Assembly: GCF_024298765.1 (NCBI RefSeq)
Contig: NZ_CP101218.1
Source of the DNA: Escherichia coli
GTDB taxonomy: Bacteria > Pseudomonadota > Gammaproteobacteria > Enterobacterales > Enterobacteriaceae
Length of the DNA: 2,543 nt
Direction: 5' to 3' (one strand)
Part shown: piece by piece, positions 1-2,543 of the stretch
How the letters are laid out: each line of letters starts with the position of its first letter
How positions within the stretch are numbered: position 1 is the stretch's first letter
The notes under the pieces: generated by a model
What the model saw: the letters and a program-made list of their open reading frames with translations, nothing else
What the model was told of the DNA's origin: nothing
The model's database searches: none
Program-made: the position numbers and the translations under genes

Positions 1-133
1 TGTCGAAAAGTTGCAGCGGAAAATGGGACAGGATGTGTATTCGTCATACCGCGAATACATTCGCTTGCATGAGAATACCTCCTGTCAGGGCAAGCCCCGA
101 CACCCCAAACGTGCAAAATGGAGAGTCATTGCG
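1..133 (+). promoter_or_regulatory. Leader region upstream of mobC; candidate operator or oriT-like (bom-like) region
   Basis: Seen in sequence: 14-bp palindrome GCGAAT-ac-ATTCGC (51-64), GAATAC direct repeat (53-58, 73-78), 9-bp palindrome CCTGTCAGG (81-89), and the 12-mer GCCCCGACACCC (94-105), which I recall as also present in the pBR322/ColE1 bom region. SD-like GGAGAG (119-124) lies 9 nt before the ATG at 134. The same frame is open back to position 2, so this region could instead be coding. Confidence 0.25.
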
Positions 134-559
134 ATGACTAAAAATAAACGTAGTGGTTCAGAAGTACGGCAGAGAACTAAGGTTATCACCCTTAGAGTAA
201 ATAACAGAGTCGCAAGCGAAATCAGACGGCGAGCGAAGAACGAAGGACTGACAATTTCAGAATATATCAGGACGGCAAGTTTAAATAATGAAATAAAACA
301 GCGCGTACCTTCCAGGTATTTAGATGAATTAATCCGACTTGGTCGGATGCAGAAGAAATTATTTGATAAGGGAAAGCGGCCGAAGGATAAGGAGTACCTC
401 GAGGTGATGCATAAAATAATTTTACTTTGCGATGAAATGAAAATAGTAACGAAGCGAATTTCTGATGTATATAATGAAATGGATTTAATAAAGGATGAAA
501 TAAAAATAATAAAAAGGATACATAAAGATAAATATCCAGGTTCGGATTTATTCAAATAA
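134..559 (+). CDS. mobC: Ribbon-helix-helix DNA-binding protein, MobC/MbeC-like plasmid mobilization accessory protein (141 aa). The frame is open to the window start, so alternative starts at ATG 23, TTG 11 or off-window cannot be excluded.
   Basis: ORF track frame 11..559. ATG at 134 is preceded by GGAGAG with a 9-nt spacer. The N-terminal basic tail followed by RTKVITLRVNNRVASEIRRRAKNEGLTISEYIRTASLN fits the RHH beta-strand/helix/helix pattern (R-x-I-x-L-R-V ... G-L-T-I-S-E-Y-I-R) typical of MobC-type relaxosome accessory proteins; the C-terminal half is charged and helical. TAA stop at 557-559. Confidence 0.6.
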   Translation: MTKNKRSGSEVRQRTKVITLRVNNRVASEIRRRAKNEGLTISEYIRTASLNNEIKQRVPSRYLDELIRLGRMQKKLFDKGKRPKDKEYLEVMHKIILLCDEMKIVTKRISDVYNEMDLIKDEIKIIKRIHKDKYPGSDLFK

Positions 560-755: not shown

Positions 756-1307
756 TTAACTAGATTTATCCTCTTGTTTTTCAATTGTATTTTTTCTCTC
801 AATCACAGTTGTAAACGCGATTCTGTCACCATTAAAAACAAAGTTAGGGTTAATGAAATACCTTCCTTGTCGCATTGTTTTTGCAATTATTTTCGCTTTT
901 TCCAATTCATTAAGACCTCGCTTAAAGGTTGCAAGACTTAGTCGTAATGGTTGTTTACTCGCAGAAACTTGGCACTGAAGAAACGCTTCTAAAACTAAGG
1001 TATCCAAATCAACTTCGTCTTTTGAGAGTGCAGAGTTCTGAACGGACCAAACTAAAACACCGAAGGCTTTAATTCCCGCAGAAGATAGCTCAAAAGTTAA
1101 GCCAATATTTGCTGTAAAAAGTTTTACAAACTGTTCGCTATCAACACGTTTATATGTTGTTACGTGAGTACCTTGAACCTCACCTGTGTTCTGATTGACC
1201 AGGATGTTATCATCACGACCTAGACGCGAAAGCCTAACTTGCTTCCCCTTGACAGGTACAACCATTCCTTCTAAAAATGGGTTTTCTTTATAGCGACCGA
1301 AGCTCAT
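756..1307 (-). CDS. repL: Plasmid replication initiator, RepL family (winged-helix DNA-binding), 183 aa
   Basis: ORF track 756..1307 (-). ATG at 1305-1307 on the minus strand is preceded by AGGGGTG (SD-like) with about a 5-nt spacer. The protein carries motifs I recognise from RepL of staphylococcal pSN2-type plasmids and phage P1 RepL: NTGEV near the N-terminus, a central FVKLF...GL segment, and a C-terminal LNELEKAKIIAK...YFINPNFVFNGDRI (compare LKILEEGNIIKRK...LMLNPELLMRGDD). Family assignment is from memory, not a search. Confidence 0.8.
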   Translation of the reverse strand: MSFGRYKENPFLEGMVVPVKGKQVRLSRLGRDDNILVNQNTGEVQGTHVTTYKRVDSEQFVKLFTANIGLTFELSSAGIKAFGVLVWSVQNSALSKDEVDLDTLVLEAFLQCQVSASKQPLRLSLATFKRGLNELEKAKIIAKTMRQGRYFINPNFVFNGDRIAFTTVIERKNTIEKQEDKSS

Positions 1308-2449: not shown

Positions 2450-2543
2450 AAGCAATAATTTTTAAAATCTGTGTAAATAATATTGAATGAAGCATCATTT
2501 TTTTGTATCAGAAATACCAGGTTACGACGCGGTATTTTATTTT

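Follow-up and report, generated by a model that had tools for sequence, protein, structure and literature searches.

Overall Organization of the Plasmid

The analysed DNA (the window) is a stretch of 2,543 bp representing one whole copy of a small circular E. coli plasmid (positions 1–2543), which belongs to a RepL/Col(MG828)-typed family with sizes ranging from 2.3 to 3.9 kb. Its best match is the circular plasmid pGF4-G (2,535 bp), with 99.2% identity across the whole window, and megablast places it among small E. coli plasmids annotated with only RepL and 'MobA'. The record of pGF4-G has its origin elsewhere, so the join between positions 2543 and 1 is internal to that record. Furthermore, an artificial junction formed by the last 300 nt and the first 300 nt of the window is present as a single contiguous piece in 27 plasmid records, with identities of up to 99.3%, and no indel occurs at 2543/1 in two alignments comprising 4 and 10 relatives. 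The molecule is circular with contiguous ends, as an earlier note on this DNA had suspected; an overlap between the two ends, which that note had proposed to look for, is absent. The position 2543/1 is an arbitrary linearisation point situated 28 nt from the predicted nick site of an IncI-complex oriT, and the features at the window edges are artefacts of where the circle was cut. The family is found in approximately 0.8% of complete E. coli genomes; further records come from Klebsiella, E. fergusonii, and, in one case, Actinobacillus. The single strains GF4 (NZ_CP172224/225/226), STEC2018-607, and B771 each carry two or three different members, implying that variants with different repL modules are mutually compatible.

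The plasmid carries two recognisable genes. The first, mobA (134–559, plus strand), is preceded by a candidate Shine–Dalgarno sequence, GGAG, at 120–123 and encodes a NikA-like ribbon-helix-helix (RHH) relaxosome accessory protein of 141 aa. MobA scores 61 bits against the NikA-like family of Pfam (cutoff 27) and 99 bits against the MobA family of NCBIfam (cutoff 80), and its residues 6–51 match the RHH domain of R64 NikA (PDB 2BA3, E = 1e-6). It is 50% identical to the IncI NikA and 43–50% identical to the known NikA proteins, carries a 40-aa C-terminal extension, and is the product of the same mobA gene that PGAP annotates in pGF4-G. The second gene, repL (756–1307, minus strand), encodes a replication/maintenance protein of 183 aa (Pfam RepL, 30 bits with a cutoff of 20.3) and is likewise annotated in pGF4-G. 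No relaxase is encoded in the whole window, where no ORF exceeds 183 aa and no product other than MobA and RepL can be recognised. Because no NikB is encoded in cis, the oriT depends on a relaxase supplied in trans and is not a self-sufficient MOB module.

Immediately after the mobA stop codon, a perfect palindromic hairpin of 30 nt (AAATAAGGTCTTTTAAAAAAGACCTTATTT, 562–591), detected by self-match, likely acts as a bidirectional terminator separating mobA from repL, which are convergent. The repL module (729–1495), together with the repeats upstream of it, has been exchanged relative to that of the 2.3-kb relatives. Meanwhile, the adjoining segment 596–728 shares conserved sequence with the 3' end of the different repL allele of these relatives, and looks like a relic of repL allele exchange. 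Upstream of repL, at 1352–1415, a hairpin (GTAGCTCAAAA...TTTTGAGCTAC) is accompanied by repeated GAGCTACCGTAG-like units, and these elements are candidate RepL operator or iteron sites.

A GC-rich segment (approximately 1692–2000) matches part of over 600 small plasmids at 88–92% identity, among them 1.5-kb cryptic plasmids typed as Col(MG828). The segment contains several strong conserved hairpins (RNAalifold, −114 kcal/mol, with a covariation term of +2.4) and gives no match in Rfam, and the ORF located there (1629–2012) gives no match in Pfam or NCBIfam. In one record of the 1.5-kb plasmids, a 'rep protein' label is placed over this segment, but it has no family support and matches the ORF 1730–2005, not 1629–2012. 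The label is probably a spurious ORF.

Architecture of the Origin of Transfer

Beside the junction, on the minus strand, the nick region (25–37) reads CACATCCTG/TCCC, where the slash marks the predicted nic between positions 29 and 28. The nick consensus of MOBP systems is YATCCTG/Y. A match to YATCCTGY occurs only once in the window, compared with 0.17 expected: the minus strand reads ACATCCTGT over 36–28, and the complete motif, ACATCCTG/TC, covers 36–27. The nick position 29/28 is predicted from this consensus, and transfer is predicted to involve the minus strand, with a 5' end that would run from 28 through 1 into 2543.

The region was compared with the actual sequences located upstream of nikA in IncI-gamma/K1, IncI1/B/O, and IncK2/Z plasmids and in a pOSAK1-like small plasmid. 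The nick block GGGACAGGATGTG (25–37) is identical at 13 of 13 positions in all four oriTs, and a second block, GTCAGGGCnnGCCCCGACACCCC (84–106), is common to the same four; both blocks lie just upstream of nikA in each compared plasmid. The gap between the blocks is 46 nt here and 45 nt in IncI, and it is occupied by an inverted repeat of unrelated sequence. A local alignment of the region to the IncI oriT yields a z-score of 12.8. The R64-homologous core covers 18–106. The earlier note had placed an oriT-like region across the junction; an oriT does exist at the junction, but its core is situated wholly to the right, and only a family-specific block crosses the join. In pCTX-M3, a homologous nick region (ACATCTTGT) was predicted from R64, and its mutation abolishes oriT function (PMC7440800).

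Between the nick site and mobA, two inverted repeats are arranged in succession. The long imperfect repeat (27–86), with arms at approximately 27–49 and 67–86 and an inner stem at 51–55/60–64, begins right after GATGTG, as in the IncI oriTs, and differs in sequence from the repeat of every helper subtype. The transferred strand folds here into a 60-nt imperfect hairpin with 25 pairs, and 96.7% of the pair cells are complementary among 13 family members. One compensatory change (C42–G73 to T–A) is a double substitution in the insert of p5312.29; the covariation is weak, since the region hardly varies and 52 of 500 shuffles do as well as this single compensatory pair. The long repeat is the positional equivalent of the 17-bp repeats A/B of R64 and is presumed to be bound by the plasmid's own NikA-like protein. 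The short repeat, GTCAGGGC-aa-GCCCCGAC followed by ACCCC (84–106, the repeat itself at 84–101), is located between the long repeat and the nikA homologue, and is common to IncI-complex oriTs and the ColE1 bom. A scan of the whole window against Rfam gave nothing at E ≤ 1.

Among I-complex plasmids, at least four repeat subtypes are situated beside an identical nick region (NZ_CP100531.1 4080–4150 versus NZ_KR905387.1 6825–6875, and others), and two of them both occur within plasmids typed as IncK2/Z. Such an arrangement suggests that NikA/repeat specificities are modular and that the NikB target stays constant.

Taken with the absence of a relaxase, this architecture is best explained by an oriT of the IncI-complex (R64-type, MOBP) type, not by a pBR322/ColE1 bom, on a plasmid that hitches by means of a relaxase supplied in trans; we place the probability of this overall explanation at about 85%.

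Conserved Block on the Leading Side of nic

A family-specific, near-invariant block occupies the leading side of nic (2459–2543, continuing into 1–24). From 2459 through 2543 to approximately 133, pairwise identity within the family is 98–100%, compared with 71–88% in the flanks, and conservation of this oriT block exceeds even that of mobA. In a distant blastn search, the left part of the block was present only in 34 family records, including two cointegrates, and no IncI homologue of it (2459–2543 plus 1–24) was found. Given the predicted polarity of transfer, and by analogy with R64, the left block would be the first DNA to enter a recipient.

Inside the block, a small inverted repeat (2512–2538) is formed by AAATACC (2512–2518) and GGTATTT (2531–2537), and the sequence CGCGGTAT (2528–2535) is complementary to the loop ATACCGCG (46–53) of the long repeat. 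Both the small repeat and this complementarity could be due to chance. At the edge of the block, a near-perfect palindrome, GTTATTTA-T-TAAATAAC, is located at 2441–2457 and is largely kept within the family, with one substitution in one member.

Natural Cointegrates with IncK2/Z Plasmids

Two IncK2/Z, MOBP, MPF_I plasmids, pTMSA992 and p5312.29, each contain a complete member of the small-plasmid family, placed precisely between yggA, a gene of the leading region, and the IncK2 nikA–relaxase operon. The inserts, situated in published IncK2 blaCMY-2 plasmids, correspond to NZ_KR905387.1 4490–6830 and NZ_KR905385.1 approximately 500–2930. At the left hybrid junction, the IncK2 leading side (…gaaaaacggga) is joined to the repeat of the small plasmid; at the right hybrid junction, the leading side of the small plasmid (…ggaaaatTgga or …ggaaaatAgga) is joined to the IncK2 repeat. 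All crossovers fall inside window positions 26–37, the shared 12-bp nick region that holds the predicted nic, and each cointegrate thereby possesses a pair of hybrid oriTs and two genes of the nikA type. Strong differences separate the inserts: their mobA genes are clearly divergent, their repL modules cannot be aligned, and their mean column identity is 86% overall; the two integrations are therefore independent. Crossover at 12 bp of identity, bypassing a 23-bp homology nearby, is a prediction of relaxase-mediated nic-to-nic joining. The source paper reported 'a fragment of 2.3 kb between yggA and nikA' and left it uninterpreted (PMC5350095); this fragment is now explained as an oriT–oriT cointegrate.

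A further-reaching proposal combines the two observations: the leading-side segment of approximately 110 bp would be an undescribed functional module of hitchers, and integration into the helper oriT would be a regular route of travel or persistence. The segment could act as a single-strand promoter or priming signal upon entry, or as an additional MobA site through which a foreign NikB is adapted. As a whole, this proposal appears unlikely.

Still less probable is the explanation that the conserved junction block has a mainly vegetative replication or regulatory role, as a RepL origin or as the mobA promoter/operator, and that the cointegrates arose by ordinary short-homology recombination. 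The block is kept unchanged in plasmids where the repL module (729–1495) has been replaced by unrelated alleles, so it is not specific to RepL. A mobA promoter must be situated somewhere upstream, AT-rich palindromes lie close by, and the left block (2459–2543) has neither an IncI homologue nor an assigned function, which would leave room for such a role, but a scan of the junction region in a relative revealed no consensus promoter on either strand and no terminator. RecA recombination usually needs more than 12 bp, a requirement that the shared nick region does not reach, and both independent integrations occurred there and not at the longer 23-bp GTCAGGGC...ACCCC homology. The enriched co-residence with IncK2/Z plasmids, described below, also argues against ordinary recombination and in favour of a relaxase-dependent hitcher.

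Comparison with the pBR322/ColE1 bom Region

The earlier note had pointed to two oligomers that would lie about 100 bp apart across the join, close to the order and spacing of the same oligomers between pas and bom of pBR322. The 12-mer GCCCCGACACCC is present at 94–105 and forms part of the short inverted repeat element at 84–106. The 10-mer GCGGTATTTT is present as well, within the small inverted repeat of the leading-side block, but at 2529–2538, one base away from the position given for it (2530–2539). Across the join, the two are separated by 108 nt from start to start, with a gap of 98 nt. Their order is unchanged in pBR322-type DNA, yet they are 134 nt apart there, and their distances to nic are 90 and 44 nt, compared with 43 and 65 nt in the window. 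The pBR322 sequence used as bait matches real records at 100%.

A pBR322/ColE1-type (MOB-HEN) bom spanning the junction, marked by these oligomers in pBR322-like order and spacing, is highly improbable. By chance, the window and a 4.4-kb plasmid should have approximately 21 10-mers and 1.3 12-mers in common. The two oligomers thus carry little weight by themselves, and the 12-mer gains meaning only through its extended context. That context does point to the bom, since the extended form GTCAGGGCnnnGCCCCGACACCC is found in the ColE1 bom, which contains gggtcagggctgcGCCCCGACACCC; however, IncI oriTs contain it equally, and their alignment extends through the entire region. When the joined ends are aligned to the pBR322 bom, only the oligomers align, with a z-score of approximately 4 compared with 12.8 for the IncI oriT, and the shuffle maximum exceeds the score of the 10-mer. 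The extended 10-mer, GA[C/T]GCGGTATTTT, does match at 12 of 13 positions, but GCGGTATTT(T) is absent from ColE1. The nick of ColE1 is CTGG/CTTAA and that of the MOBP/R64 type is CATCCTG/T; no ColE1 nic motif (TACTGG/CTTAAC) exists at the junction. Neither an MbeC/MobC-type accessory protein nor an MbeA relaxase accompanies the site, and the neighbouring gene is of the NikA type. To judge from its sequence context, the 12-mer is a genuine oriT-linked element, shared through the short inverted repeat by ColE1-type and IncI-type oriTs, and the match of the 10-mer to pBR322 is best read as a coincidence.

Synteny of pas and bom is absent from the window. A sequence resembling the ColE1 pas/ssiA primosome assembly site (cttttccgcttcctcg...gcggcgagcggta) is situated at 1513–1573 on the plus strand, in inverted orientation and approximately 1 kb away from the junction. 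It aligns to ColE1 1307–1367 on the opposite strand, with a score of 63 compared with a shuffle maximum of 30, and it indicates ColE1-family ancestry of some segments of the window.

Inside repL, at 1096–1107 on the minus strand, TATTGGCTTAAC resembles the ColE1/pBR322 nic TACTGG/CTTAAC with one mismatch (ATATTGGCTTAACT matching at 13 of 14 positions), and is the only near match in the window. A 7-bp inverted repeat, TGTAAAA/TTTTACA, is located 8 nt upstream of it. In the alignment read by eye, the site was not found in the insert of p5312.29, and it is probably a chance occurrence within coding sequence.

Open Frame across the Join

The ATG at 2487–2489 opens a frame on the plus strand whose first 19 codons extend to 2543; joined to position 1, the frame continues through 23 further codons to a TGA at 70–72 (1–72 with the stop), giving 42 aa (MKHHFFVSEIPGYDAVFYFCRKVAAENGTGCVFVIPRIHSLA). 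These features, and the lack of a purine-rich Shine–Dalgarno sequence in the upstream AAATAATATTGA, agree with the description in the earlier note. Among 10 family members, the variant codons comprise 1 synonymous and 11 non-synonymous changes, distributed over the codon positions as [5,6,2], compared with 14 synonymous and 12 non-synonymous changes and [8,5,15] in mobA. Rare 'hypothetical protein' labels exist near the frame, and the one checked (p5312.29) is on the opposite strand.

That this frame encodes a real small protein is scarcely credible: the ATG and the open frame are kept in 10 of 10 members compared, but this is explained by DNA that is nearly invariant, the changes show no third-position bias, the peptide has no match in Pfam or NCBIfam, the frame has no Shine–Dalgarno sequence and overlies the nick region and the long inverted repeat, no inspected record has a plus-strand CDS annotated over it, and a 42-codon ORF is unremarkable because 15 ORFs of at least 42 aa exist in the 2.5-kb window. 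On this pattern of change, we judge the frame not to be a gene; it appears to be non-coding and a by-product of conservation at the DNA level.

Co-Residence with Helper Plasmids and Proposed Mobilisation

Of 5,426 complete E. coli genomes, 45 contain the family oriT block, in every case on a plasmid. A helper relaxase was defined by at least 95% identity to the relaxase of the IncK2/Z plasmid pLH10-b-1-A. Among the matches listed, a small family member is present in the strains of 5 of the 16 records with such a relaxase, corresponding to a hypergeometric P of 1.3e-7, or approximately 1e-4 with related isolates collapsed, and this co-residence is confounded by niche, as the isolates are mostly from poultry and several come from the same studies. 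Meanwhile, MOB-suite types the whole family as non-mobilizable, a call that reflects the missing relaxase and the absence of this oriT from the MOB-suite database.

From the sequence, we infer a course of mobilisation in which MobA would bind its cognate repeat beside nic and recruit a NikB-type relaxase in trans. This relaxase would come from an I-complex conjugative plasmid in the same cell, for which IncK2/Z is the best candidate. The helper NikB would recognise the universal nick region and nick the minus strand, and the strand would be exported in the 5' to 3' direction via the MPF_I system of the helper, with positions 28 to 1 and then 2543 onwards entering first and mobA last. MobA is only 43–50% identical to NikA proteins and has the 40-aa C-terminal extension, so its productive pairing with a given NikB is no more than presumed. 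A relaxase-in-trans hitcher is the best-supported model of the plasmid. An I-complex oriT together with a private NikA homologue would reclassify a 'non-mobilizable' family as hitchers of IncK2/Z-type plasmids, and perhaps of other IncI-complex plasmids. The IncK2/Z-type helpers are major carriers of blaCMY-2 in poultry.

Comparison with Known Systems

Compared with the oriT–nikA region of R64 and other I-complex plasmids (IncI-gamma, B/O, K, K2/Z), the window plasmid has an identical nick region, a long inverted repeat starting at the same position, the same short GTCAGGGC and GCCCCGAC repeat, and the same spacing of 45–46 nt. In both, the nikA homologue is situated directly downstream and transcribed away from nic, and the N-terminal RHH domains are alike. 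However, there are significant differences. The window plasmid has neither the nikB relaxase nor transfer genes, its long repeat is unrelated (TATTCGTCAT... versus CAATTGTAAT...), and its MobA shares 43–50% identity with the I-complex NikA and is 31 aa longer. Its leading side is family-specific and lacks the TATAAT found upstream of the IncI nick region.

Close parallels in organization are pCERC7, NTP16, and pU302S, which PMC9282650 describes as small relaxase-less plasmids with an R64-like oriT and a NikA approximately 50% identical to that of R64. According to the same paper, which cites Moran & Hall 2017, NTP16 is mobilised by R64, and mobilisation by an I-complex relaxase in trans is thought to apply to the others. 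Like the window plasmid, plasmids of the pCERC7/NTP16 kind are small and combine an R64-like oriT with nikA, without a relaxase or a T4SS. In contrast, pCERC7/NTP16 and the pOSAK1-like plasmids are ColE1-type (RNA-primed) replicons with a 20-bp repeat of the CAATTG type, and the replicon of the window plasmid is of the RepL/Col(MG828) type. MobA of the window plasmid shares approximately 42% identity with the proteins encoded by nikA of pOSAK1-like small plasmids, and both the repeat and the leading-side block of the window plasmid are distinct. The window plasmid follows the same working logic as pCERC7/NTP16 and is a separate lineage.

An R64-type oriT alone suffices for mobilisation in pEC156 (PMC4743918), and pBuzz is presented in PMC9282650, citing Moran & Hall 2019, as an oriT-only plasmid mobilised by an I-complex helper (B/O or R64). 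As proposed for the window plasmid, both use the I-complex relaxase of a helper in trans through an R64-like oriT. They differ from it in that they have no accessory gene and carry near-copies of the helper oriT, whereas the window plasmid has a NikA homologue and a repeat of its own. In the case of the ColE1/pBR322 bom (MOB-HEN/MOBP5), the shared element is GTCAGGGCnn(n)GCCCCGACACCC, located 5' of nic on the transferred strand; the nick (CTGG/CTTAA), the repeat, and the accessory family (MbeC/MobC) are different, and the synteny of pas and bom is not retained here.

A literature search on Col(MG828) plasmids in connection with oriT returned nothing specific. Relaxase-less hitchers with nikA and an oriT are already known; compared with them, what is mildly new is the pair of IncK2 cointegrates that had gone without interpretation, together with the invariant leading-side block.
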